DNA of 11,564 bases from an uncultured archaeon (GTDB lineage: Archaea; Altiarchaeota; Altiarchaeia; IMC4; SCGC-AAA252-I15). Location of the stretch: the NCBI GenBank assembly GCA_902384455.1, contig CABMCB010000049.1:1-11564 (forward strand). Reading direction: 5' to 3'. Positions within the stretch are counted from its first letter, which is position 1, and every line of letters starts with the position of its first letter. The translations under genes and the position numbers were made by a program. This document shows positions 1 through 11,530 of this stretch, piece after piece. Below the pieces are notes generated by a model. The model was given only the letters and a program-made list of their open reading frames with translations, ran no database searches and was not told the origin of the DNA.

Positions 1-1086
1 CAATCCACGCTAACCAACTGGACGCCACCACAATACCCAAAAATAGACGCACTAGGCCACATACGCGCAACACTAAAGACCCGCGAAAGAGGATTCATAA
101 ACGTACGCATAGGCGAAGGCATACTAGACCCCCAATTGGGAGAAATAAAACAGGCCACAATCAACGACGCACTATGGGAAGCAATCAGGTGGAACCAATG
201 GATAGACGCCAACGAAAACGCCGAACACCCCACATCAACCGCACCACCCATAAAACTCACAGCAGCAGAACTAGACTGGATAAAAAACACCGACATAAAC
301 CAACTAACAGCCCGCTACAAAGAAACAACAGAATACTCAGACGGCCACATAAACCTATGCAAAGAAACAGACATCAAACCCACACCAAACCCCGAAACAG
401 CGCTATCCGCATGGCGCACCAGCCTAAACCCCAAAAACCTAATGCCAGAACAACCCCAACAACTAAAAAGACTGGAAGAACTGACACCAATACGAACAGG
501 AGAAAAAAGCATACAATTCGGCCACCTATTCGTCGACTACATACTATCCCGCGCCAAAACAACCGAAGGCATAGACCACGAACACGAAACAGTAGACCCC
601 CAACGCCTACTACTAGACCTTCCCTCATCCCCCCTACTAAAAACAATACTGGGCTTAGAAGCATTCACTCCCGGAAAACCAGCCGACAACCTACGCAACC
701 TCAGAAAAGCAAAAGAAAAAGCATACTCCACCATATTCACCGAAAAAGAAAGCCCATACTACTTCCGCAAAATATGGGCCGACGGAAACAGCATAAACCT
801 TAGGGACGCAATGCAACGGCTAGACCTACAACACCTGCCAGCTGAAATAAACAGCCGCATATTCGGCAACCTAAAGCAGTACGGCTACCTCACGTCGCCC
901 ACGGAAAACCTCCAAACCGCAATGGCCGACCTGAAGGTGGACAAAATAGAGTTCATCCGAAACTCAACGTACGCCAAAAACACGGAAGACCTGCGCAACC
1001 TAACACAACAAAAAGCTGAACAAGAAATAAGCGACCAATACGGGCTCACCCTGGAAGAAGCTCAAAAACTCCTGACTCTGCCGTAA
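1..1086 (+). CDS. Hypothetical protein, 5'-truncated by the window edge (at least 361 aa)
   Basis: Frame 1 is open from base 1 (QSTLTNWTPPQYPKIDALGHIR...) to TAA at 1084-1086, so the TTG at 136 in the ORF track is probably internal. Third positions in this frame are strongly A/C, as in the neighbouring real genes. No family motif recognised. Confidence 0.8.
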   Translation, partial: QSTLTNWTPPQYPKIDALGHIRATLKTRERGFINVRIGEGILDPQLGEIKQATINDALWEAIRWNQWIDANENAEHPTSTAPPIKLTAAELDWIKNTDINQLTARYKETTEYSDGHINLCKETDIKPTPNPETALSAWRTSLNPKNLMPEQPQQLKRLEELTPIRTGEKSIQFGHLFVDYILSRAKTTEGIDHEHETVDPQRLLLDLPSSPLLKTILGLEAFTPGKPADNLRNLRKAKEKAYSTIFTEKESPYYFRKIWADGNSINLRDAMQRLDLQHLPAEINSRIFGNLKQYGYLTSPTENLQTAMADLKVDKIEFIRNSTYAKNTEDLRNLTQQKAEQEISDQYGLTLEEAQKLLTLP

Positions 1087-1117
1087 ATAGCCGCAAAAGG
1101 CGCGCATGAAACCAGGG

Positions 1118-1131
1118 CAAAAAGTATTTTA
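1118..1131 (+). promoter_or_regulatory. Putative BRE/TATA promoter for the serA-like gene (leaderless)
   Basis: Purine-rich CAAAAAG followed by TATTTTA (1125-1131), ending 26 nt before ATG 1157, the spacing expected for an archaeal leaderless transcript. Confidence 0.5.
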
Positions 1132-1156
1132 CGTCCACTTGCAAATACTAAACCCT

Positions 1157-2077
1157 ATGAAACCCAAAATACTCCTCACAGAAACCCTACACCCGCTGGC
1201 CATAGAACGGGCAAAAGAATTCGCCGACGTCACAGAAGCATACGGCATAAAGCCTGACGAACTAATACAGAAAATACCTGACTACGAAGCCATCGTAGTG
1301 CGAAGCGGCACCAAAGTCACAGCAGAAGTAATCGCGGCCGGCAAAAAACTCAAAATAATCGGCAGAGCCGGAGTAGGCCTCGACAACATAGACATGGACG
1401 CCGCCAAAAAACATAAACTTGAAATAGCCAACAGCCCGGAAGCAAGCACAATAAGCGTCGCAGAACACGCGTTTGCGCTACTTCTATCAACCGCGCGCTG
1501 GATTCCCCAAGCCCACGCAAGCATGATGAAAGGAGAATGGGACCGCAAAAACTTCAACGGCACAGAACTATCCGAAAAAACACTCGGAATAATAGGATTC
1601 GGCCGCATAGGACGCGAAGTGGCAATCAAAGCCAAAGCATTCAACATGAACATCCTCACCTACGACCCCAAAGGCACCCATGAGGCGGCAGCCGAATACG
1701 GCGCAAAGCTCGTGGAAGTCGAGGAGCTGCTCGCTAAGTCGGATTTCATAACTCTACACCTGCCATCGCTTCCTGAAACAAAGAAATTCATAAACTCGGA
1801 GCGCATAGGCCTAATGAAGAAAAACGCAATACTGGTGAACACAAGCCGCGGCTCGGTCATAGACGAAGCGGCGCTGTACGACGCACTCAAAAACAAGAAA
1901 ATCAAGGCCGCAGCACTGGATGTTTATGAGCAGGAGCCGCCTAAGGAAAGCCCCCTTTTGACGCTCCCAAACATCGTCCTCACGCCGCACCAAGCCGGAA
2001 GCACAGACGAAGCCCAACGCAGGGCAGGCACAGTAGTAATAGACAAAATCCACAACTTCTTCCGCGAAGGCAAGTAA
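1157..2077 (+). CDS. serA: D-3-phosphoglycerate dehydrogenase-like / D-isomer-specific 2-hydroxyacid dehydrogenase, 306 aa, without ASB/ACT regulatory domains
   Basis: Motifs VRSGTKVT, GRAGVGLDNID, Rossmann GIIGFGRIG, and catalytic Arg (NTSRG), Glu (DVYEQEP) and His (TPHQAGST). Start moved from 1106 to ATG 1157 (MKPKILLTETL) to match the family N-terminus and TATA spacing. Substrate is inferred. Confidence 0.85.
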   Translation: MKPKILLTETLHPLAIERAKEFADVTEAYGIKPDELIQKIPDYEAIVVRSGTKVTAEVIAAGKKLKIIGRAGVGLDNIDMDAAKKHKLEIANSPEASTISVAEHAFALLLSTARWIPQAHASMMKGEWDRKNFNGTELSEKTLGIIGFGRIGREVAIKAKAFNMNILTYDPKGTHEAAAEYGAKLVEVEELLAKSDFITLHLPSLPETKKFINSERIGLMKKNAILVNTSRGSVIDEAALYDALKNKKIKAAALDVYEQEPPKESPLLTLPNIVLTPHQAGSTDEAQRRAGTVVIDKIHNFFREGK

Positions 2078-2087
2078 AAACGGAAGC

Positions 2088-2095
2088 GGGGGTGA
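2088..2095 (+). promoter_or_regulatory. Shine-Dalgarno-like site for DP1
   Basis: GGGGGTGA, one mismatch from the archaeal GGAGGTGA consensus, 4 nt before TTG 2100. Supports the TTG start and co-transcription with serA (22-nt gap). Confidence 0.6.
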
Positions 2096-2099
2096 GGGG

Positions 2100-3620
2100 T
2101 TGACGGAAGACAAAGAATCAGAGTTACGGAAGGCCATCACCGGAACTTTCCGGGAGAATGGGCTTCTGATTGCCGCCTCCAGTCTGGACCGCATAATCGC
2201 TGCGGGAGTCAACCCGAAAGACGTTGTGGAGGAGGCCAAGAAGGAGGGGCTATGGATTATCGCCGAAGACTTTATTCTCCGTTTCATTAAAACCGACGAG
2301 GAACTCACTGAGATTGCCGGTGAAATAGGCGACGCGGCGGAGTTGCCTGTGTCTGTGGTAAAGACAAAGCACTCTTATGCGAAGGACGTTGCCCCCCAGA
2401 TTCGCATAAGGGAAGACACCGACATCACGGACAAAAGCAGTTCTGACGGCACAATGCAAAACTTCGTCGACTACTTCAACAACAAATACGAGCGTCTGGG
2501 CTCGATTCTGAAGGAACGCCCCAACTACCGCACCGCAGTAACAGTCGAGGCATTGAAAAAACTGGGCAAAACACCTGAACCGCAGCGAATAATCGTAATG
2601 GTAACTGAAAAACGCGAAAGCAAGAAAGGAAACAAATTCTTTGAAGCAGAAGACCCCACAGGCCAAATCACAGTGTACGTAAAACCAGGCGAACGCCGCC
2701 TGGAACAAGCCTACAACGACATAATGCTTGACGAAGTAATAGGCGTCGAAGGAGTGCTTTCAAACAACCTTTTTGTGGCCCGCGAAATAACTGAACCTGA
2801 CCTGCCCATATCCCACCCCGAACACAGAAGCGAAGAACCCGTGTGCGTCGCATACCTATCCGACACCCACGTAGGAAGCTACCTATTCCTTGAAAAACAA
2901 TTCAAAGCATTCATAGAATGGCTTAAGGGGTCAGGAAACCGCAAAGAACTAAGCGAAGCCATAAAATACGTCATAATCGCCGGAGACCTCGTCGACGGAA
3001 TAGGCGTCTACCCCAGCCAAGAAAAAGAACTGACGCTCCCAGACATAAACAAGCAATACGCCTACTTCACAGACCTAGTCGCCCAAATACCAAACTACAT
3101 AGAAGTCATAATATCAGTCGGAAACCACGACGCAGTAAGACGCGCCGAACCACAACCCAAACTCCCACACGAAATAGCAGAAGGCCTCGAAAAACTCCCG
3201 AACGTACACCTAGTCGGAAACCCAGTATACGCCGACATACACGGAGTAAGCCACCTAATATACCACGGAACAACACTCGACACAGTAATAGGAAGCTTCG
3301 CAGACTGCTCATACAAAAACCCGGAAAAAGCAATGACACACTACCTAAGAAAACGCCACCTAGCGCCAGTATACGGAAACGACAACCTACTGCCGACAAC
3401 CCGCGACTACATGGCAATAAACGAAATACCTGACGTACTACACTGCGGCCACGTGCACACAAACGGCTACGGAAACTACCGCGGAGTCCGCATAATAAAC
3501 AGCGGAACATGGCAGGCGCGAACCAAATACCAGGAAATGCTCGGTCACCAGCCCACCCCCGCCCACATGCCGGTGCTAAACCTCCAGAACATGGAATTCA
3601 CATTACTCCACTTCGAATAA
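2100..3620 (+). CDS. polB: DNA polymerase D small subunit DP1 (3'-5' proofreading exonuclease, calcineurin-like phosphoesterase with OB fold)
   Basis: Phosphoesterase motifs SDTHVGS, AGDLVDGIGVYPSQ, GNHDAVRRAEPQP, IYHG, RHLAPVYG, HCGHVH and NSGTWQ. OB-fold region around AEDPTGQITV...DEVIGVEG. Adjacent to DP2. Confidence 0.97.
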   Translation: MTEDKESELRKAITGTFRENGLLIAASSLDRIIAAGVNPKDVVEEAKKEGLWIIAEDFILRFIKTDEELTEIAGEIGDAAELPVSVVKTKHSYAKDVAPQIRIREDTDITDKSSSDGTMQNFVDYFNNKYERLGSILKERPNYRTAVTVEALKKLGKTPEPQRIIVMVTEKRESKKGNKFFEAEDPTGQITVYVKPGERRLEQAYNDIMLDEVIGVEGVLSNNLFVAREITEPDLPISHPEHRSEEPVCVAYLSDTHVGSYLFLEKQFKAFIEWLKGSGNRKELSEAIKYVIIAGDLVDGIGVYPSQEKELTLPDINKQYAYFTDLVAQIPNYIEVIISVGNHDAVRRAEPQPKLPHEIAEGLEKLPNVHLVGNPVYADIHGVSHLIYHGTTLDTVIGSFADCSYKNPEKAMTHYLRKRHLAPVYGNDNLLPTTRDYMAINEIPDVLHCGHVHTNGYGNYRGVRIINSGTWQARTKYQEMLGHQPTPAHMPVLNLQNMEFTLLHFE

Positions 3621-6600
3621 ATGAGCAAAGAAAAATACCACGCGCAACTGCTGGAACGCATAACAACCGAATACGCAATAGCGGAGAAAGCCCGAAAACT
3701 AGGCTACGACCCCGCACTAACAGTAGAAGCGCTACCCGCAGGCGACCTCGCAGACCGAGTAGAAGGACTTGTGGGCCCGCCCGGAATAGCAAAAACAATA
3801 AGAGAAATAGGTCGCGCAAAAATAACCTCAATAATAGACAGCCTGCTTCCAGCGGACATAAACCAGCCGGACGAAGCATTAACCAAAGCAAGCGAACAGG
3901 CGATAAGAACCGCTCTCGCAATACTGACTGAAGGAGTAGTTGCGGCGCCGATAGAAGGCATAAGCGAAGTAGCCATAAAAACAAACCCGGACGGAAGCCG
4001 CTACCTAAGCATATCGTTTGCCGGCCCAATACGAAGCGCAGGAGGGACGGCGCAGGGACTCGCAGTACTAATCGGCGACTACATACGCAGGAAACTAAAC
4101 CTTAAGGACTACCGGCCCACCGAAGACGAAATAGAACGCTACGTAGAAGAAGTCAACCTGTACCACGAGCGCGCAAGCCACCTCCAATACCGTCCGCCAG
4201 ACGAAGCAGTCCGAACGATAGTCCGCAGCGCGTCAGTTTGCGTCGACGGAGACCCCACCGAGGAAATAGAAGTAAGCGCACACAGAGACCTGCCCCGCAT
4301 AGCAAGCAACAGAATCCGCGGCGGAGCATGCCTCGTCATAGCCGAAGGAATAGCGCAAAAAGCACCTAAAATACAGAAAATATCCAAACAATGGGGCCTA
4401 GACTGGAGTTGGCTATCGCAACTGACCAAAGCCAAAGCAACCACGACCGAAGAGCAGAAAGAAGACAAAGTAAGCCGCTTCATGGAAGAAATAGTCGGAG
4501 GACGACCCATATTCGCGGCACCCGGCGCATCAGGCGCTTTCCGCCTAAGATACGGAAGAACCCGCACGTCAGGGATAACCGCAAAAAGCGTCCACCCAGC
4601 CACAATGATTCTCTCGATGGACTTCATGGCGACAGGCACGCAGATGAAAGTCGAGCACCCCGGAAAAGGATGCGTAATAACCGCATGCGACTCAATAGAG
4701 CCGCCAACGGCAAAACTGCTCGACGGAACAGTACTAAGGGTTGAAACAGCAAAACAAGCCCGCGAAATAAACAACCAAATCAAAGAAGTCCTATTCCTAG
4801 GCGACATACTAGTGTCCTACGGCGACTTCCTACAATCAAACCACGCACTAATGCCAGCAGGATACTGCGAAGAATGGTGGCTCCAGGAACTTGCGGCCTC
4901 CGGCGGCAGACCGCCTGAAAACCTCACCCCCGAAGCGGCAGTAGCGTTAAGTGCAAAACACAACATACCCCTGCACCCAAAATACACTTACGCGTGGGAA
5001 GACCACAAAGTAAAAGAAATCAAACCCCTCGTAGAATACCTCCTATCCGGAAAACTCGTAGACGGCGAATTCGTCCTATTCACACCCGCAGACAGCGTCA
5101 AAAGAACGCTCGAAACTCTCGGAATACCCCACAAAGTAGAACGCAACCAACTAACAATCCCAGAATACCTAACCCTACTAACCCAGCTGGGACTCATACG
5201 CGGCGACGCACTAACCGACGCAATATACATTGAAACAATAAAAGACGCAAAAGACGAAGACAACGCATTCGAAATAATACGCCGCCTAAGCACAATACCA
5301 CTGCGGAAAAAAATAGGCACATACGTAGGCTGCAGAATGGGCCGCCCAGAAAAAGCCCGCGAAAGAAAAATGCAGCCCCCAGTCCACAGTCTATTCCCAA
5401 TAGGAAACGCGGGAGGCAGAGAAAGAAGCCTAAACAAGGCCGCTGAAAACGAGACGGTAAACGTGGATGTGGCGCGATTCAGAAACCCAGTGTCAGGCGC
5501 GTCGACACTATACATTAAGACCGACGGCATAGGCGCCCCAAGCACGCCGCTCAAATACTGCGAAACGCACGGGTGGGTGGAAGAAAAAGAAAAATGCCCC
5601 GCATGCGGCAAACCAACCGCATACTACGGAAAACAAGACATACCTATACGAAAAATGTGGCTGACAGCAGTCGAAAGAATAGGCCGCGCGCCACCCACCA
5701 AAGCCGTAATCGGCATGATTTCAGAATACAAAATCCCCGAGCCGATGGAAAAAGGAATACTTCGCGCCCAACACGACGTATACGTCTTCAAAGACGGCAC
5801 ATGCCGCTTCGACGCCACCGACGTGCCACTAACGCACTTCAAGCCGAAAGAAATAAAAGTCTCCCCGCAAAAACTCACAGAACTAGGATACACCCACGAC
5901 ATATACGGAAACCCACTGGAAAACCCCGAACAAACACTAGAACTAAAGCCGCAAGACATACTACTCGCAAAAGCAGGCGGAGAATACCTCAAAAAAGTAG
6001 CCGACTTCATAGACGAACTACTAACCAAACTATACGACCTACCACCATACTACAAACTAGAAACACCAGACGACCTCGTAGGACACCTAGTCGCAGGACT
6101 AGCACCCCACACAAGCGCCGCAGTAGTAGGCCGAGTAATAGGATTCACAGACGCCCACGTAGGATTCGCCCACCCATTCTGGCACGCAGCCAAAAGACGA
6201 AACTGCGACGGAGACGAAGACGCAGTAATGCTTCTTCTGGACGGCCTAATCAACTTCAGCCGGAAGCATCTGCCTGAGAAAAGAGGCGGGAAAATGGACG
6301 CTCCTTTGGTCGTAACCAAGATACTTGACCCACTGGAAATAGACGACGAAGCCCACAAGATAGAGTTTGTGCCCGTGTTCCCGTCAAGCTTCTACGAGGC
6401 AACTTGGAAGCAATTACCCCCTTCGGAAGCAGGCGTGCCGACAGTCGCAGACCACCTGAAAAAGAAGGATCTCCCCCCTATGCCATTCACCCACGACACA
6501 ACAGACATCACCGGACCGGTCGTTGAAACGCGCTACGTAAGCCTAAACACTATGGACGAAAAAGTTGAGGCGCAGCTTAAGGTCGCCGAAAGGTTCAGGG

Positions 6601-6947
6601 CCATAGACGAAGACGAAGTCGCCTCACTCATAATAAACAGCCATTTCATACGCGACATCCAGGGTAACCTGCGCGCCTTCTCCCGCCAGCACTTCCGCTG
6701 CGTAGACTGCAACCAAAACTACCGCCGCATACCCTTAGCAGGCAGGTGCGTGAAATGCGGAGGAAAACTCCTACTCACAGTCACGGAAGGAAACATAAGG
6801 AAATACCTGGACACAAGCATAGCCCTCGCAGAAACATACGACCTCTCACCCTACCTAAAGCAGCGCCTGAACCTGCTGAAATCCGAAGTGTTCTCGGTGT
6901 TCACAAACCAGACGAAACAGCAGGCAAGCCTCGCAGACTTCATGTAA
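3621..6947 (+). CDS. polC: DNA polymerase D large (catalytic) subunit DP2, intein-free, 1108 aa
   Basis: Signature motifs AGPIRSAGGTAQ, FRLRYGR, GYCEEWW, GCRMGRPEKA, RFDATDVPLTHF, GLAPHTSA and catalytic KRRNCDGDED (CDGDED at 6204-6221). C-terminal Zn finger CVDC...CVKC (6699-6758) and terminal PIP-box-like QASLADFM. ATG directly follows the DP1 TAA. Confidence 0.98.
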   Translation: MSKEKYHAQLLERITTEYAIAEKARKLGYDPALTVEALPAGDLADRVEGLVGPPGIAKTIREIGRAKITSIIDSLLPADINQPDEALTKASEQAIRTALAILTEGVVAAPIEGISEVAIKTNPDGSRYLSISFAGPIRSAGGTAQGLAVLIGDYIRRKLNLKDYRPTEDEIERYVEEVNLYHERASHLQYRPPDEAVRTIVRSASVCVDGDPTEEIEVSAHRDLPRIASNRIRGGACLVIAEGIAQKAPKIQKISKQWGLDWSWLSQLTKAKATTTEEQKEDKVSRFMEEIVGGRPIFAAPGASGAFRLRYGRTRTSGITAKSVHPATMILSMDFMATGTQMKVEHPGKGCVITACDSIEPPTAKLLDGTVLRVETAKQAREINNQIKEVLFLGDILVSYGDFLQSNHALMPAGYCEEWWLQELAASGGRPPENLTPEAAVALSAKHNIPLHPKYTYAWEDHKVKEIKPLVEYLLSGKLVDGEFVLFTPADSVKRTLETLGIPHKVERNQLTIPEYLTLLTQLGLIRGDALTDAIYIETIKDAKDEDNAFEIIRRLSTIPLRKKIGTYVGCRMGRPEKARERKMQPPVHSLFPIGNAGGRERSLNKAAENETVNVDVARFRNPVSGASTLYIKTDGIGAPSTPLKYCETHGWVEEKEKCPACGKPTAYYGKQDIPIRKMWLTAVERIGRAPPTKAVIGMISEYKIPEPMEKGILRAQHDVYVFKDGTCRFDATDVPLTHFKPKEIKVSPQKLTELGYTHDIYGNPLENPEQTLELKPQDILLAKAGGEYLKKVADFIDELLTKLYDLPPYYKLETPDDLVGHLVAGLAPHTSAAVVGRVIGFTDAHVGFAHPFWHAAKRRNCDGDEDAVMLLLDGLINFSRKHLPEKRGGKMDAPLVVTKILDPLEIDDEAHKIEFVPVFPSSFYEATWKQLPPSEAGVPTVADHLKKKDLPPMPFTHDTTDITGPVVETRYVSLNTMDEKVEAQLKVAERFRAIDEDEVASLIINSHFIRDIQGNLRAFSRQHFRCVDCNQNYRRIPLAGRCVKCGGKLLLTVTEGNIRKYLDTSIALAETYDLSPYLKQRLNLLKSEVFSVFTNQTKQQASLADFM

Positions 6948-6981
6948 ACGGAAAAACCAACCCCCTAAATAAGCGGCCTTA

Positions 6982-7488
6982 TCAGGAGGCTTTTTCCACA
7001 GTCAGGTAAAGGCTGTCCTTGGTGCCTTCAAAGCCGGGCGTATCTGAAGCGGAAACGTCTATCCTGTACTTGCCTTCCAAAGCGCCTGGCAGAAGCTGCA
7101 TAGTCTTACTGAGCTTCCGCGTCTCCTTAGGGCCCACCCTCACAGTCTCAGTCCACTGGGTGTCATTAACTAATCCGCTGTCAAAAATCAGTCTGCTGTC
7201 GTATGTTGCGGCAGTCACCTGAATGTTGACGCTGTTGCTTTCGTCGTCGTTTTGAACTTCAACATCCAGTCTGCTTCTTCCCCCCGGTTTGACGGAGTCT
7301 GGGTCTAAGCTTGATTTTATGCCTATCCCATTTTTGACGTTGAAGCTGCCCTTTATCCCGCCAATAAGAAGGATTAAAACTAACGCAACAATGAACACAG
7401 TCACAAGAACAGTCTTCCACTTAACACGAGATACCAAATCAGTTATCATGTTGTCGTCTTCAGCCACTTTGATCCTCTCCTCGTCCAC
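6982..7488 (-). CDS. Hypothetical membrane-anchored protein: one N-terminal TM helix plus an Ig-like/CARDB-like beta-sandwich
   Basis: Basic KWK followed by hydrophobic TVLVTVFIVALVLILLIGGI. Patterns PDSVKPGGRSRLDVEVQN, VGPKETRKLS and GKYRIDVSA are typical of archaeal surface Ig-like domains. Tandem TGA TAA stops. GTG start at 7488, alternative ATG at 7449. Confidence 0.75.
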   Translation of the reverse strand: MDEERIKVAEDDNMITDLVSRVKWKTVLVTVFIVALVLILLIGGIKGSFNVKNGIGIKSSLDPDSVKPGGRSRLDVEVQNDDESNSVNIQVTAATYDSRLIFDSGLVNDTQWTETVRVGPKETRKLSKTMQLLPGALEGKYRIDVSASDTPGFEGTKDSLYLTVEKAS

Positions 7489-7527
7489 TTCCTTTTAGTA
7501 TGTGAACCAATTAAAATAAGCACTCAA
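7489..7527. promoter_or_regulatory. Compact 39-bp divergent promoter region
   Basis: Minus-strand GCTTATTTTA (7521-7512) ends 24 nt before GTG 7488. Plus-strand TTTTAGTA (7493-7500) ends 28 nt before ATG 7528. Confidence 0.5.
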
Positions 7528-8790
7528 ATGGCAGAAACATTGCTTGTCAAGAGCGTCTGGATGGACGGCAAAAAAAGAGACATCTACGTCGAAGACGGAG
7601 CCATAAGCAAAATAGGCGGCACCCCAAGCAAAGCGGGCATAGTCATCGACGCCAAAGGGCGTAAAGCGGCGTTTCCCGGATTAATCAACTCCCACACGCA
7701 CGCCGCAATGACGCTGCTTAGGGGATACGCCGACGACCTGGAGCTTTCCGACTGGCTCACAAACCACATCTGGCCGAAGGAAGCAAAAATCACCCCGGAC
7801 GACGTCTACTGGGGAACAAGACTCGCATGCCTGGAAATGATTCACTGCGGAACAACATGCTTCAACGACATGTACTTTCACCCCGCAGAAGCCGCCCGCG
7901 CATCAGACGACGCGGGAATGCGGGCGACAGTCTCAGCGCTACTTCTGGACAAAGGCGACAAAGAAAAAGCAGAAACCCAAAAGAAAAACGCAGACAAAAC
8001 CCTGTCTCAACGCCCACAAAAAAAGTCGCTCATAAAAAAAGCAATAGCAATACACAGCGTATACGCCACAAACCCAGAAAACATAAAATGGGCCACAGAA
8101 TACGGCCTAAAACACAAATGCCAAGTGCACACGCACCTCTCGGAAACAAGGTGGGAAAACGAAGACTGCGTACGCCAACACGGAAAAAGGCCCGTAGAGT
8201 ACCTTGACCAATTAGGCGCCCTCACGCCCAATCTGACCGCGGCTCATTGCACTTGGCTGACTAAATCTGAATGCTCAACTCTCGCAGACCGCGGGGTTTC
8301 TGTCGTCCACTGCCCGGTAAGCAACATGAAGCTTGCCACAGGCGGAGTGATGCCTTACCCTGAGCTTAAGCAGGCAGGCGCAAACGTCGCTTTGGGAACT
8401 GACGGCGCCGCAAGCAACAACAGCCTAAACATGCTGGAATCCATGAAGTTCGCCGCATTAATCCAGAAGGCCCACAGGTGGGACCAGACGGTTCTGCCGG
8501 CCAAAGAAGCAATTGCAATGGCCACAAAAGGCGGGGCTCAAGCCCTCAAAATTCCGTCGGGAGAAATCGCTGAAGGAAAACCCGCAGACTTCTTCCTGTT
8601 GGATTTGACGCGCCCGGAAACAACCCCCCACCACAAAATCGAAAGCGACCTGGTCTACTCCAGCAACCCCTCCTGCGTCACAGAGACGATAATCGCAGGA
8701 AAAATTCTGATGAAAGACGGCAAAATAGACAGGGAAGATGAAATCATAGAAAAAGCTTTAAAACAGGCCGAAGACTACATACGCAGGTAA
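7528..8790 (+). CDS. mtaD: Metal-dependent amidohydrolase, 5-methylthioadenosine/S-adenosylhomocysteine (5'-deoxyadenosine) deaminase family
   Basis: Metal ligands in INSHTHAAM (HxH), HTHLSET, AHCTWL and GTDGAASNN. Family motifs LLRGYADDL..WL..HIWP.E, GTTCFNDMYF and HCPVSNMKLATG. Confidence 0.85.
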   Translation: MAETLLVKSVWMDGKKRDIYVEDGAISKIGGTPSKAGIVIDAKGRKAAFPGLINSHTHAAMTLLRGYADDLELSDWLTNHIWPKEAKITPDDVYWGTRLACLEMIHCGTTCFNDMYFHPAEAARASDDAGMRATVSALLLDKGDKEKAETQKKNADKTLSQRPQKKSLIKKAIAIHSVYATNPENIKWATEYGLKHKCQVHTHLSETRWENEDCVRQHGKRPVEYLDQLGALTPNLTAAHCTWLTKSECSTLADRGVSVVHCPVSNMKLATGGVMPYPELKQAGANVALGTDGAASNNSLNMLESMKFAALIQKAHRWDQTVLPAKEAIAMATKGGAQALKIPSGEIAEGKPADFFLLDLTRPETTPHHKIESDLVYSSNPSCVTETIIAGKILMKDGKIDREDEIIEKALKQAEDYIRR

Positions 8791-8792
8791 CC

Positions 8793-8803
8793 TTTTTTTT
8801 ATT
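8793..8803 (+). terminator. Oligo-T tract after mtaD (archaeal intrinsic terminator), possibly doubling as the TATA box of the GNAT gene
   Basis: T8 run (8793-8800) 2 nt after the stop in an otherwise T-poor strand, followed by a pyrimidine-rich stretch. TTTTATT ends 24 nt before ATG 8827. Confidence 0.5.
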
Positions 8804-8826
8804 CTAATCCTTCTTTCTAAGTGCAT

Positions 8827-9321
8827 ATGGAAGCAGCGTTCAGGCCGGTCGAAGAAAAGGACCTTGTTGAAATAAACCGCATAGTCAACGATTTTGAAGT
8901 GGCGCGCTACTTGACTCTGATTCCTCCCGTAAGCCTTGAGGAAACTCGGCAGCACTTTGCGGAAAACAAGAAGCTGGGCAACCCCTGGTACACGATACTT
9001 GTTGACGGCAAAATCGCCGGGAGCTTCATTCTGCGGCGCCAGAAAGGAAACAACAGCCATGTGGCGGTATTCGGAATAAACATAGACAAACCCTACTGGG
9101 GACACGGCGTAGGCGCGCAAGCCCTAGCTTACGCCGAAGAAGAAGGCAGGAAAATAGGCGTAAAAAAGCTGGAACTCGAAGTAGTCCAGGAAAACGAAAG
9201 GGCAGTAAGCCTGTACGAGAAAGACGGGTTCACAATCGAAGGATGCAAAAGGAAGCACACATTCGTAGACGAAGACTACAAAGACACCCTCATAATGGGA
9301 AAATGGATTTGGTCCGAATAA
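8827..9321 (+). CDS. GNAT family N-acetyltransferase (RimJ/RimL/YhhY-like), 164 aa
   Basis: N-terminal FRPVEEKDL, acetyl-CoA binding motif A (IDKPYWGHGVG), motif B (LEVVQENERAVSLYEKDGF..EG) and C-terminal YKDTLIMG. ATG 8827 preferred over GTG 8821. Confidence 0.9.
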   Translation: MEAAFRPVEEKDLVEINRIVNDFEVARYLTLIPPVSLEETRQHFAENKKLGNPWYTILVDGKIAGSFILRRQKGNNSHVAVFGINIDKPYWGHGVGAQALAYAEEEGRKIGVKKLELEVVQENERAVSLYEKDGFTIEGCKRKHTFVDEDYKDTLIMGKWIWSE

Positions 9322-9327
9322 ACCCCC

Positions 9328-10407
9328 CTAATCATCGTCCCTGGCGCTTTGCACATACAACGCCTTAATAGACCTCGCAAACTGAATCCCCTCTTTCTCA
9401 AAACTCCGCTTAATGGCCCGATTAACCTTATCCACCGTAACCGCCTTCTTGTTGACGTCAGCCACCTTATAAACCAACTCAACATTAAGACTGGACTCAC
9501 CAAACTCCTTAAAATAAACAACAGGCTCATCCCTCCCAGAAACGCCCTCAGCACCCTTAATAGCTGCCTTAGCGACATCAATAGCCTTATCCAAATCATC
9601 CGAAGAAGTATCATAAGAAAGACCCAGAACCCCCACAACTCTCACGCGCAAATCAGGCTCAATCACATTCTCAATCTGCTTGCTAACAATCTCAGTGTTA
9701 GGGATGGAAATAATCGTATTCTCCGGCGTCAAAATACGCGTACTCCTAAGCCCCACGTCAATGACCGACCCCTCAATACCCCCGACACGAACAATATCCC
9801 CAATCTTAAAAGGCCGGTCAGTGAAAATCACAGCCCCCCCAAACATGTTCTCCAAAGTGGGCTTCGCAGCCAACGCGACAGCAACACCCCCAACCCCAAG
9901 CCCGGCAACAACAGCAGTAACATTGTACCCGAAATTATCCAAAATGAAAATACCAGCAACAACCCACAAACACACGTTAAAACTGCGAGTAAGAATAGCC
10001 AGCATCTGAACATCCAAAGCACTATCCTTACGAGAAGCCGCAGGAGCAACATACTCCTTAATCATACTGCCGACAAAACGCGAAATAAACCACGTCACAT
10101 CAACAGTAACCAAAGCCAAAAGCACCTCATTTATGAAAGACGCAACCCACTCAGGAAGAACCAAAGTACCAGCCGCAACATAAACCCCGCCCACAGCAAC
10201 CAACAAAGTCAAAGGCTCCTCAACAGTATCAACAAGAATGTCGTCGGCCTTGCTATCCGTCTTGGCCACAAGCCTGCGCATCAGCCCCTTGAATATGAAA
10301 TAAATGGTGCGGGAAAGCAAAATGGAAACTAAAACAACGCCTAAGGCGGCAACATAACCCCCTAAACTATTCCCAAAATAAACATTCGACAGAACCTGAG
10401 CATCCAT
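9328..10407 (-). CDS. mscS: Small-conductance mechanosensitive channel, MscS family (YnaI-like, extra N-terminal TM helices)
   Basis: Pore helix AGLGVGGVAVALAAKPTLENMFGG, then DRPFKIGDIV, GSVIDVGLRSTRI, IPN and FKEFGESSLN. About five hydrophobic segments in the N-terminal half. Converges on the GNAT gene with a 6-bp gap. Confidence 0.95.
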   Translation of the reverse strand: MDAQVLSNVYFGNSLGGYVAALGVVLVSILLSRTIYFIFKGLMRRLVAKTDSKADDILVDTVEEPLTLLVAVGGVYVAAGTLVLPEWVASFINEVLLALVTVDVTWFISRFVGSMIKEYVAPAASRKDSALDVQMLAILTRSFNVCLWVVAGIFILDNFGYNVTAVVAGLGVGGVAVALAAKPTLENMFGGAVIFTDRPFKIGDIVRVGGIEGSVIDVGLRSTRILTPENTIISIPNTEIVSKQIENVIEPDLRVRVVGVLGLSYDTSSDDLDKAIDVAKAAIKGAEGVSGRDEPVVYFKEFGESSLNVELVYKVADVNKKAVTVDKVNRAIKRSFEKEGIQFARSIKALYVQSARDDD

Positions 10408-10485
10408 GAGAACAGATTACTAAACGGCCGCCTAAAAACGTTTAGCGATCAATCTGGCGGAAACAACCCTCCCTCCAAAAGTCCG

Positions 10486-10494
10486 GCTTATTTA
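10486..10494 (+). promoter_or_regulatory. Putative TATA box for the three-ORF cluster (leaderless)
   Basis: GCTTATTTA ends 24 nt before ATG 10518 and is nearly identical to the element upstream of the 7488 minus-strand gene. Confidence 0.5.
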
Positions 10495-10517
10495 CCGGGA
10501 TTACCCTAAACTAAAAT

Positions 10518-10763
10518 ATGGCGGCAGTAGTAACAAAAGACCCTAACATACAAACTCGGACGGCAATCAAGGAAACAGAGCCACCGGAGATTATTCAGCC
10601 GCCTGCATCAAAATCGGTATTGCGCACCAGAGACTCAACAGACGCGTTAAGCCGCTCGCTAGGAAGCATAAACCGTGCGACTGGAACGCTTGGCGCGCAG
10701 ATGAAAACGACCGCCGTAAGGTTCATGAGTGCGGCCGCAGGAAAAATAACCGGCACAAAATGA
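10518..10763 (+). CDS. Small hypothetical protein, 81 aa (Pro-rich N-half, basic amphipathic C-half)
   Basis: ATG at TATA-appropriate distance, fills the space divergent from mscS, and its stop is 1 nt from the next ATG. No family recognised. Confidence 0.6.
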   Translation: MAAVVTKDPNIQTRTAIKETEPPEIIQPPASKSVLRTRDSTDALSRSLGSINRATGTLGAQMKTTAVRFMSAAAGKITGTK

Positions 10764-10764
10764 G

Positions 10765-11025
10765 ATGGCTCAATTAAAAGAAAGAGACTTGGCATATGCA
10801 GCGGCAGGCGCGGCGGTATTAACGTCCTCTCCCGAACTCACCCAATTAGTAGAGTCACAAGGCGCATCGGCGATAACGCATCCTCTTGGAGTAGCAAACT
10901 CACTAGCCGGAAACCTAAATACTATATCCTCAGCAGCAGTTGGACTGGCGTCCAATATTGCTCCTCCTTTACTTGTCTTGGGTTTCATGCGTCTGGGGTT
11001 TGGAAAGATGTTGGAGTCGATTTAA
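10765..11025 (+). CDS. Small Ala/Gly/Leu-rich hydrophobic hypothetical protein, 86 aa, probably membrane-associated
   Basis: TGA-G-ATG coupling upstream and TAA-A-ATG downstream. Hydrophobic segments LAYAAAGAAVL and AAVGLASNIAPPLLVLGFMRLGFG. Confidence 0.65.
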   Translation: MAQLKERDLAYAAAGAAVLTSSPELTQLVESQGASAITHPLGVANSLAGNLNTISSAAVGLASNIAPPLLVLGFMRLGFGKMLESI

Positions 11026-11026
11026 A

Positions 11027-11530
11027 ATGGACGTTTCATTTCAGGACCTTGCGAATCTGGGGCTGACGCCGGAAAAATACGGTCAACTGGACCAGCAAAC
11101 GCAATCCTACGTCATAGGCCGCATAAGGAAAGACCAGGAGATTCGAAACACGGCGTTGATTGCGGAACTGCTGATGGCGATGGCGGAAGAGTTGGGGCCG
11201 GAAAAACCAGCTTACATGGACCCCGTAATCGCATCGCAAAGGCAGGACGTAGCTGAAAACCTGGCAAACATCGCATTGGAATACAAAAAATCAGGTGTTG
11301 CAACAAGCATAAAAGACTTCTATAAAATCAAGTACGGAGGCAAAAGCCGCGAAATACTCACAAGCCAGCTGCAGATACAAAAGCCGGCGGCATCACAGAT
11401 TCCGACGCCGGCCGCACCCGTAGTTCCGATACAAGCCCAAAAAACAGCGCAAACATCCGCGTTCCCGCCCGCCCCGCAAACGCAGCCCACCCAAACGCAA
11501 TACCCTGCGTTCTTTAAAATGAGATTCTGA
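11027..11530 (+). CDS. Hypothetical protein, 167 aa: helical domain, P/Q/A/T-rich linker, aromatic/basic C-terminal tail
   Basis: ATG 11027 (MDVSFQDLANLG...) lies 1 nt after the previous stop and is preferred over TTG 10940, which would overlap the upstream ORF by 86 nt. Confidence 0.75.
   Translation: MDVSFQDLANLGLTPEKYGQLDQQTQSYVIGRIRKDQEIRNTALIAELLMAMAEELGPEKPAYMDPVIASQRQDVAENLANIALEYKKSGVATSIKDFYKIKYGGKSREILTSQLQIQKPAASQIPTPAAPVVPIQAQKTAQTSAFPPAPQTQPTQTQYPAFFKMRF

Follow-up and report, generated by a model that had tools for sequence, protein, structure and literature searches.

Tract-wise amino/keto strand asymmetry in the genome of an uncultured archaeon

The window analyzed here is a stretch of 11,564 bp, contig CABMCB010000049.1 of the metagenome assembly GCA_902384455.1, which encodes the small and the large subunit of DNA polymerase PolD (DP1 and DP2) and, on the opposite strand, an MscS-type mechanosensitive channel. 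The names carried by the DP2 homologues assign the organism to Altiarchaeota/Altiarchaeales. The third codon positions of this DNA are filled with A and C on the + strand, whichever strand encodes the gene, and the question raised by the locus is what kind of process leaves such a mark. A sequence-only reading of the window had described a mitochondrion-like skew and had considered an unusual mode of replication, a repair deficit or an ssDNA-editing activity as its cause. As described below, the skew is one part of a genome-wide mosaic of short tracts of both polarities, and no known bias of replication, transcription or codon usage matches the pattern.

The counts given by the sequence-only reading are exact. 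No codon among the first 206 of ORF1 (open reading frame 1; positions 1-618) ends in T (A 110, C 80, G 16 and T 0 in third position), and 91 of the 92 codons of DP2 at 5952-6227 end in A or C (A 52, C 39, G 1), the sole G being that of the Trp codon TGG. In the MscS gene, which is read from the minus strand, 19 of the 20 in-frame codons at 10200-10141 end in G or T (T 12, G 7, C 1). Given the neutral four-fold T share of 0.225 in this genome, the probability of 206 codons without T is ~1e-23. The four-fold skew was defined as (A+C-G-T)/n and is given in + strand terms for the genes of the window. In these terms the MscS gene (+0.69), whose own sense strand has A 1, C 27, G 56 and T 98 at four-fold sites, is as A/C-rich as ORF1 (+0.66). 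The whole window shows an AT skew of +0.358 and a GC skew of -0.140 on the + strand, and in 1-kb windows the two reach +0.53 and -0.33, respectively. The skew reported along the window is therefore real, yet it is not continuous, as a hidden Markov model (HMM) on four-fold sites recovers six A/C tracts with unskewed stretches between them and zero G/T tracts.

The metagenome bin to which the window belongs as contig C49 (G000) consists of 103 contigs and 2.41 Mb, and its contigs fall into three classes. Class A (45 contigs, 1.63 Mb, G+C ~0.50) is strongly skewed, class B (32 contigs, 0.61 Mb, G+C 0.52-0.55) shows no skew, and class C (26 contigs, 0.17 Mb, G+C <0.47) is skewed with a smaller tract share, 32% of its 2-kb windows exceeding a skew of 0.15. 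All six-frame ORFs were compared by blastp with the whole genome (1.81 Mb) of a family-level relative, G012. After overlap resolution, 940 ORFs of class A, 24 of class C and 16 of class B (the last at ~29% identity) had matches. Because of this difference between classes A and B, class B is foreign DNA in the bin; its contigs include C59, C4, C10, C25, C68, C69, C38 and C40. The reported contamination of the bin is low (0.9) despite these 0.61 Mb. All genome-scale statements on skew are restricted to class A, that is, the Altiarchaeales-type part.

Class C contigs have a fairly uniform A-rich sense bias, with C63 carrying a NucS gene and C33 a second Orc1/Cdc6 gene. They could represent islands or mobile elements of this archaeon, or belong to a third organism.

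Gene calling needs care in this DNA. Stop codons require T and A together, and so long frames stay open on both strands of skewed DNA; the 327-residue shadow ORF antisense to MscS in the window is such a case. Calls by longest ORF are error-prone and some "mirrored" ORFs resembled shadow ORFs. Hence a validated set of genes was used, in which the blastp score against G012 is two or more times the score of every antisense ORF that overlaps and at least 40 four-fold sites are present (n=864). The antisense-rival filter removed 27 of 891 ORFs, and the 1493 class A ORFs with matches had been reduced to the 940 loci mentioned above.

The HMM, applied to 246,824 four-fold sites of class A, assigned 25% of them to A/C-rich tracts, 19% to G/T-rich tracts and 56% to neutral DNA, with an A/C content of 84% and 16% in the two kinds of tracts. 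Tracts hold 44% of the four-fold sites in class A versus 0.3% in class B. The length of internal tracts is ~0.4 kb at the median and ~0.64 kb on average, and the longest reaches 7.9 kb. When all bases were modeled, the HMM over-segmented the DNA, and the four-fold-site model was used instead. At the level of genes, the sense-direction skew of the 864 validated genes has a mean of +0.13 and a standard deviation of 0.39, against a sampling standard deviation of 0.09. The skew exceeds +0.4 in 240 genes and is below -0.4 in 92, which shows that MscS is not a lone exception to a coding-strand bias.

Polarity alternates all along a 248-kb contig. The skews of gene pairs closer than 2 kb correlate at 0.60 on the same strand and at 0.33 on opposite strands. 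These correlations decay over about 5-7 kb and reach, by 7-10 kb, a plateau, which lies at +0.15 for pairs on the same strand and at about -0.1 for pairs on opposite strands. The plateau is a small global sense-strand offset, and long-range DNA-strand order is absent. The earlier suggestion of a mitochondrion-like or otherwise unusual replication mode is not supported by these results, as polarity alternates in such short tracts, flips within genes and has no order at the scale of replichores.

The polarity of the tracts follows the DNA and not the genes, as had been proposed from the window. Among strongly skewed neighbors, 195 of 216 same-strand pairs and 72 of 102 opposite-strand pairs share their sign in + strand terms, the DNA sign being kept in 31/34 divergent and 19/30 convergent pairs. 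At the junctions themselves (nearest 30 four-fold sites), polarity continues in 17 divergent, 9 convergent and 47 tandem cases and flips in 0, 5 and 6, respectively. Where two neighboring genes are skewed concordantly, the intergenic DNA between them shares their sign in 94% of 108 cases. Tract edges lie within 100 bp of gene ends in 25.9% of cases versus 23.4% for random points, which is no enrichment. Mirrored genes and skewed intergenic DNA indicate that neither codon preference nor a sense-strand transcription bias is sufficient alone, in agreement with the sequence-only reading.

The axis of the bias is that of amino (A, C) versus keto (G, T) bases. Along the four-fold sites of the + strand, the state A,C versus G,T has an autocorrelation of 0.29, 0.20, 0.12 and 0.05 for lags of 1, 5, 50 and 500, and the values for the purine/pyrimidine and G+C/A+T partitions are 0.00-0.02. 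Autocorrelation in class B, in G012 and in a second relative, G013, is 0.00-0.09. The AT4 skew falls as the GC4 skew rises (rho -0.78). Sense-A/C tracts have four-fold frequencies of A.425, C.417, G.107 and T.051, and sense-G/T tracts are their mirror image (A.046, C.119, G.353, T.482). All four-fold codon families shift together, and the adjacent base modulates the bias without setting it. Nearest-neighbor coupling was ruled out, since there is no link to the amino/keto state of the flanking bases. Transitions of C to T and A to G on one strand convert amino bases to keto bases, and the axis is the one expected for such deamination-type changes, as had been recognized.

The pressure extends to the proteins. 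The four-fold skew of a gene correlates with the composition of the same gene at its first (rho 0.69) and second (rho 0.40) codon positions, as well as with the shift of these positions from the G012 orthologue (rho 0.58 and 0.33). The composition of the orthologue itself predicts the skew weakly (rho 0.13-0.14). This is an indication that the pressure moves protein composition and not the reverse. For instance, Thr amounts to 8.6% in one of the two gene groups and 4.1% in the other, and Val to 6.3% and 11.0%. The idea that membrane proteins use G/T codons was rejected: hydrophobic genes are more often G/T-rich in sense, but the rho for orthologue composition is -0.11 to 0.14 and polarity continues across gene junctions.

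The pattern is lineage-specific. DP2 has a third-position skew of +0.60 here and of -0.23 to +0.25 in 11 relatives; at four-fold sites, the relatives range from -0.24 to +0.33 against +0.53. In 2-kb windows the standard deviation of the skew is 0.163 in this genome, 0.062 in the whole genome of G012 and 0.077 in G013 (370 kb). Among 5.8 billion proteins, no DP2 comes closer than 59-60% identity, full-length matches in 30 relatives range from 53 to 59%, and a contig scan gave 44% at best. In an independent landfill-metagenome run, short low-depth contigs 90-95% identical to the window were found, and 56 of 72 contigs were less than 90% alike. The sequence type thus exists outside the source sample. 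The differences counted there, among them 43 of A>C, 37 of A>G, 29 of C>A and 24 of G>A, mix organisms and are unpolarized, and they were used solely for this statement of existence.

The search for a gene that could account for this lineage specificity followed the repair systems and the polymerases. EndoV was found in 0 of the 5 family members searched, unskewed ones included, whereas NucS and PolB are present in 5/5. A family-4 UDG occurs in 5 and a Y-family polymerase in 8 of 31 genomes, and both are also found in G002 and G005, on separate contigs. A simple repair deficit, which had been one of the first suggestions, finds no support in these distributions, as the UDG is present here though missing in most relatives. 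With regard to a possible ssDNA-editing activity, one extra small TadA-like deaminase with a CDA fold (C52:4029-4520) scores 73 bits, below the equivalog cut-off, and has no orthologue in G012. The unskewed G013 carries a small deaminase of similar score. None of these leads (EndoV, NucS, UDG, Y-family polymerase, TadA-like deaminase) accounts for the lineage specificity, and a polymerase defect was rejected as well, with the invariant columns of DP1 and DP2 intact and PolB in all five genomes.

Two gene neighborhoods were recorded beside these leads. At C39:28958-31642, a co-directional cluster consists of genes for a DJ-1/PfpI protein, the family-4 UDG, a DUF2203 protein and the Y-family (Dpo4/DinB-like) polymerase. 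The deaminase gene on C52 has as its neighbors a gene for a membrane protein and a truncated gene of the EF-Tu/SelB-like kind.

From these results, the reading that we favor, tentatively and without rating it above even chances, is a lineage-specific, tract-wise and strand-asymmetric transition pressure tied to repair or recombination events on one strand. Replication arms, annotated transcription units, neighbor context, hydrophobicity and rearrangement are contradicted by the data, and repeated one-strand events of this type are therefore preferred. In detail, there would be a net change of G to A and T to C on the A/C-rich strand, equal to C to T and A to G on its partner, and the pressure would be reapplied many times to the same strand of the same tract. 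Synonymous saturation, nudged first and second codon positions and ordinary protein divergence argue for many small events filtered by selection, which rules out single hyper-editing events.

Two kinds of event are candidates. The G/T-rich strand might repeatedly become single-stranded and be deaminated. Alternatively, the A/C-rich strand might repeatedly be resynthesized with errors, of which the C.A mispairs would evade the G/T-specific NucS/EndoMS. EndoMS/NucS cleaves G/T, G/G and T/T mismatches and not C/A (PMC6159521). Since C/A is spared, the errors surviving resynthesis would be T to C and G to A in the new strand, which is the direction observed. A weak genome-wide sense-strand preference for A/C-ending codons (mean skew +0.13) is superimposed on this pattern. 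The 33 tRNAs found, with G (16), U (12) or C (5) as first anticodon base, fit such a mild preference for C- and A-ending codons, in particular those with G or U.

Several results weigh against this reading. Saturation demands many events on the same strand within the same sharp edges, and a determinant fixing the polarity was not found. Identity to G012 is not lower in tracts (within genes, 0.537 in sense-A/C tracts versus 0.526, and 0.479 in sense-G/T tracts versus 0.487), so that nothing points to a raised substitution rate in them. Intergenic bases match the tract at 0.58-0.62 versus 0.84 at four-fold sites; this counts against pure mutation, because a mutational bias should strike intergenic DNA at least equally, unless it is constrained. 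Sense-A/C tracts outnumber sense-G/T tracts by 2.1 to 1 in sites, and gene direction is thus not wholly irrelevant. No relative close enough for polarizing substitutions was found. No gene content is unique to this genome, and G002, with both the UDG and the Y-family polymerase, has an unskewed DP2. DP1 and DP2 keep every column that is invariant in 20 and 22 homologues, respectively. Finally, the tract sizes come from an HMM with author-chosen emission and switching parameters.

The most probable alternative, which we consider possible though unlikely, is selection on nucleic-acid composition. Strand purity removes almost all intrastrand pairing and would keep RNA or transient single-stranded DNA unstructured, with a polarity frozen arbitrarily; a variant of it is a local form of codon choice. 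The gap between synonymous and intergenic sites and the unraised protein divergence, both noted above, speak for it, and so does a saturation that reaches 100 of 100 consecutive four-fold sites. The 2.1 to 1 excess of sense-A/C tracts also agrees with it, as the first anticodon bases G, U and C of the tRNA set pair best with C- and A-ending codons. On the contrary, polarity crosses divergent promoters into opposite genes (17 continuations, 0 flips), and hence no single mRNA is the selected unit. The amino/keto state of adjacent bases is uncoupled, the protein composition of orthologues barely predicts the sign (rho 0.13), and amino-acid composition is dragged along, which is unexpected for pure codon choice. 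In addition, a strong selection per synonymous site would be required.

Less probable again is a transcription-linked asymmetry caused by non-annotated transcripts (antisense, internal or read-through), in which the A/C-rich strand would be the RNA-like strand of the dominant local transcript. Tract lengths of 0.1-8 kb are transcript-like, edges are sharp and the sense strand is more often A/C-rich. Head-on flips from A/C to G/T are more numerous than back-to-back ones (171 versus 95), both kinds being sharp, and 5' edges of tracts border unskewed DNA more often, as colliding and diverging units would. The purity of tracts differs little between their two ends, with 0.84-0.86 close to the 3' edge and 0.80-0.81 close to the 5' edge of the A/C-rich strand. 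The motif AAGGCCG is found in 15 of 55 head-on flip windows, with 1.8 expected. However, the DNA sign is kept more in divergent than in convergent pairs, which is the opposite of what read-through predicts, and read-through transcription was rejected on this ground. Divergent junctions with both genes sense-A/C number 0 of 81, when about 9 would be expected from independent ends. Gene ends are not enriched for tract edges, and about a third of the tract sequence would require a dominant antisense RNA. Moreover, known transcription-coupled asymmetries render the sense strand G/T-rich and not A/C-rich.

AAGGCCG is not over-represented genome-wide (198 matches versus 197 for the reversed control), and as a hairpin of the tested form it has 0 matches in the bin. 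In the window it occurs at 6973-6980 on the minus strand, right after stop codons, in the 34-bp gap between the convergent DP2 and orf168. The 7-mer may be a 3'-end signal.

A further idea, to which we give little credence, is that the tracts are self-sustaining domains of a bistable repair loop, in which strand symmetry is broken spontaneously. The strand richer in C and A would attract more one-strand excision and error-prone resynthesis, only C.A mispairs would outlast the G/T-specific NucS, and the new strand would thereby gain A and C. Polarity would be set by chance, spread up to a domain of opposite sign and saturate the free sites. An external determinant such as a gene, origin or promoter would be unnecessary, and sharp, gene-blind domains of either sign would be explained.

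Replication-fork direction, with a skew scrambled by inversions or produced from very many fixed initiation sites, is still more doubtful. The bias is independent of gene direction and lies on an axis known for replication skews, and some contigs are nearly of one polarity (18 of 19 strongly skewed genes of one sign in C39 and 21 of 23 in C79). Among strongly skewed pairs, the share that flips is about three times as high at synteny breaks (24/110) as in conserved adjacency with G012 (9/124). Nevertheless, the median tract is ~0.4 kb and DNA-strand correlation is gone beyond about 7-10 kb. Flips are found within single genes and collinear operons. In the Pfam-confirmed feoAB operon of C72, the A/C share is 0.52-0.92 up to 8206 and 0.04-0.32 from 8209 to ~9600, so that four-fold A/C share falls from 0.76 to 0.12 in the middle of feoB, at about C72:8207. 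The G/T stretch covers the remainder of feoB and the next gene, and the A/C share is back to 0.76-0.92 from 9840. An operon of C79 that is collinear with G012 has 100 A/C sites out of 100 consecutive four-fold sites, followed by an unskewed KaiC-like gene and then by two G/T-sense genes. Adjacent gene pairs are still syntenic in 48% of cases with a relative at ~47% protein identity; rearrangement should therefore be too slow to outrun synonymous re-equilibration. Both kinds of flips are sharp, and a clean switch at the Orc1/Cdc6 gene of C71 is not seen. A rearrangement mosaic as the main cause was rejected by the flips in the collinear operon and by the syntenic pairs that flip.

Very improbable is a recombination mosaic, that is, the import of tracts by homologous recombination from sister lineages with whole-genome skews of either polarity. 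Sharp edges, gene-blind placement and broad, tract-like lengths suit it, as does the about 90-95% identical population of the independent metagenome. However, donors and recipients that differ at most synonymous sites should block homologous recombination, and opposite adjacent tracts in one gene need two oppositely skewed donors. No skewed donor lineage is known, with the nearest DP2 as distant as stated, and the proposal merely relocates the question of origin. An artefact of sequencing, assembly or binning, which a bin of 103 metagenomic contigs with 0.61 Mb of foreign unskewed DNA might bring to mind, is hardly credible. The bias keeps to codon positions, and errors of chemistry or base calling would affect the first and second positions as well. 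Proteins are intact and match their families strongly, G012 has matches for 940 non-overlapping ORFs of the skewed contigs, and the 90-95% identical contigs come from an independent run.

The features of the window are given in table 1. No Pfam or NCBIfam family was matched by the ORFs at 1-1086, 6982-7488 and 10940-11530, and a search of the window with Rfam gave zero matches. MscS matches MS_channel_2nd, MS_channel_3rd and MS_channel_1st (E 9.5e-21 to 5.5e-10). The four-fold skew of orf196 is -0.07 in + strand terms.

Table 1. Genes, tracts and unskewed stretches of the window; skews are four-fold skews in + strand terms
Feature	Positions	Strand	Remarks
ORF1	1-1086	+	5'-truncated at contig end; no family match; A 173, C 142, G 40 and T 7 in third position
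D-isomer 2-hydroxyacid dehydrogenase (2-Hacid_dh)	1106-2077	+	Pfam; skew +0.47
PolD small subunit DP1	2100-3620	+	Pfam; skew +0.45; phosphoesterase invariant columns intact
PolD large subunit DP2	3621-6947	+	Pfam; skew +0.53; D863-G864-D865-E866-D867 and other invariant columns intact
orf168	6982-7488	-	No family match; nearly unskewed, +0.24
Amidohydrolase	7528-8790	+	Pfam; skew +0.33
GNAT acetyltransferase	8821-9321	+	Pfam; skew +0.16 overall; 3' part inside the last A/C tract
MscS-type mechanosensitive channel	9328-10407	-	Pfam; mirrored bias, +0.69
Shadow ORF antisense to MscS	9349-10332	+	327 aa; no family match
A/C-rich tract	6-786	+	93.5% A/C, 124 four-fold sites
A/C-rich tract	1126-1711	+	83% A/C, 93 four-fold sites
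A/C-rich tract	2519-6227	+	80% A/C, 614 four-fold sites; begins within DP1, stops within DP2
A/C-rich tract	6584-6866	+	88% A/C, 42 four-fold sites
A/C-rich tract	7366-8223	+	74% A/C, 138 four-fold sites
A/C-rich tract	9069-10234	+	88% A/C, 185 sites; spans the convergent GNAT/MscS junction, DNA polarity unchanged
Unskewed stretch	801-1117		52% A/C, 48 four-fold sites
Other unskewed stretches	1714-2510, 6233-6578, 6869-7360, 8226-9066, 10246-11509		HMM on four-fold sites

Two loci outside the window are recorded in their own right. At C2:1311-1313 an in-frame TAG divides into two parts (486-1310 and 1314-2021) an aspartate-kinase gene that is a single ORF in G012. The TAG sits in a G/T-rich-sense tract, and CAG to TAG is a change expected from such a pressure; the TAG could be a nonsense mutation, a read-through codon or an error. 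An RVT_1 match at C67:1230-1853, on a 3.2-kb contig with a G+C of 0.395, is the sole such match in five family genomes, and the locus may be a mobile element or foreign.

In comparison with known systems, one likeness is to vertebrate mitochondrial DNA (mtDNA), which has an A/C-rich L-strand sense and a mirrored ND6. The axis, amino versus keto, is shared, and in both cases genes of the opposite strand show the mirror image. The chemistry usually invoked there is C to T plus A to G on the strand left single-stranded. Vertebrate mtDNA has one polarity over the whole molecule, with a gradient by the time spent single-stranded, and the rarest base of its A/C-rich strand is G. Here, in contrast, hundreds of tracts of both polarities and of ~0.4 kb in median, with unskewed DNA between them and flips inside genes, are found, and T (0.05) is the rarest base of the A/C-rich strand. 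Transcription-associated asymmetry shares the kilobase scale, the sharp edges and a sign partly linked to sense, but here the sign ignores annotated genes and the majority sense is A/C-rich, the opposite of the usual. Kataegis-type clusters are kilobase tracts coordinated on one strand of single-stranded DNA, produced as single events at motif cytosines. The tracts of this genome resemble them in kilobase scale, in one-strand coordination and in their strand switches. They differ from them in that A:T and G:C pairs are both affected, neighbor dependence is absent and saturation at synonymous sites comes with no excess of protein change.

To our knowledge, NucS/EndoMS is the only repair system with a built-in amino/keto asymmetry. 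It is encoded here, but also in all five family members including the unskewed ones, and therefore it is not the lineage-specific cause by itself. All strand asymmetries known to us belong to replication arms, to transcription units or to small replicons as a whole; the tracts of this genome range in size from less than a gene to an operon. A bacterial leading/lagging skew strong enough to govern codon usage, as is reported for Lawsonia intracellularis (PMC2671203), is likewise a strand mutational bias that overrides codon preference independently of gene direction. Unlike the present pattern, whose order ends by about 7-10 kb, skews of that type are known to switch at the origin and terminus only, and the local amplitude is far higher here, up to the 100 of 100 sites mentioned above. 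In a full-text search confined to the main text of articles outside subscription journals, no description of tract-wise amino/keto asymmetry in prokaryotes, or of a compositional oddity in Altiarchaeota, was found.

Strand asymmetry is used for finding origins, for inferring mutation mechanisms and in models of codon usage. The present pattern has practical consequences. Both strands are poor in stop codons, so that long spurious ORFs are frequent and a gene caller may settle on the wrong strand, as at the shadow ORF of the window. The dragged amino-acid composition can mislead phylogenies, and composition-based binning placed 0.61 Mb of foreign DNA in this genome. If the cause is selective, this would be among the strongest selection on synonymous sites in a cellular genome. 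If it is mutational, the tracts would be the product of an undescribed strand-asymmetric process of archaeal DNA metabolism, with a natural record of its sites of action.

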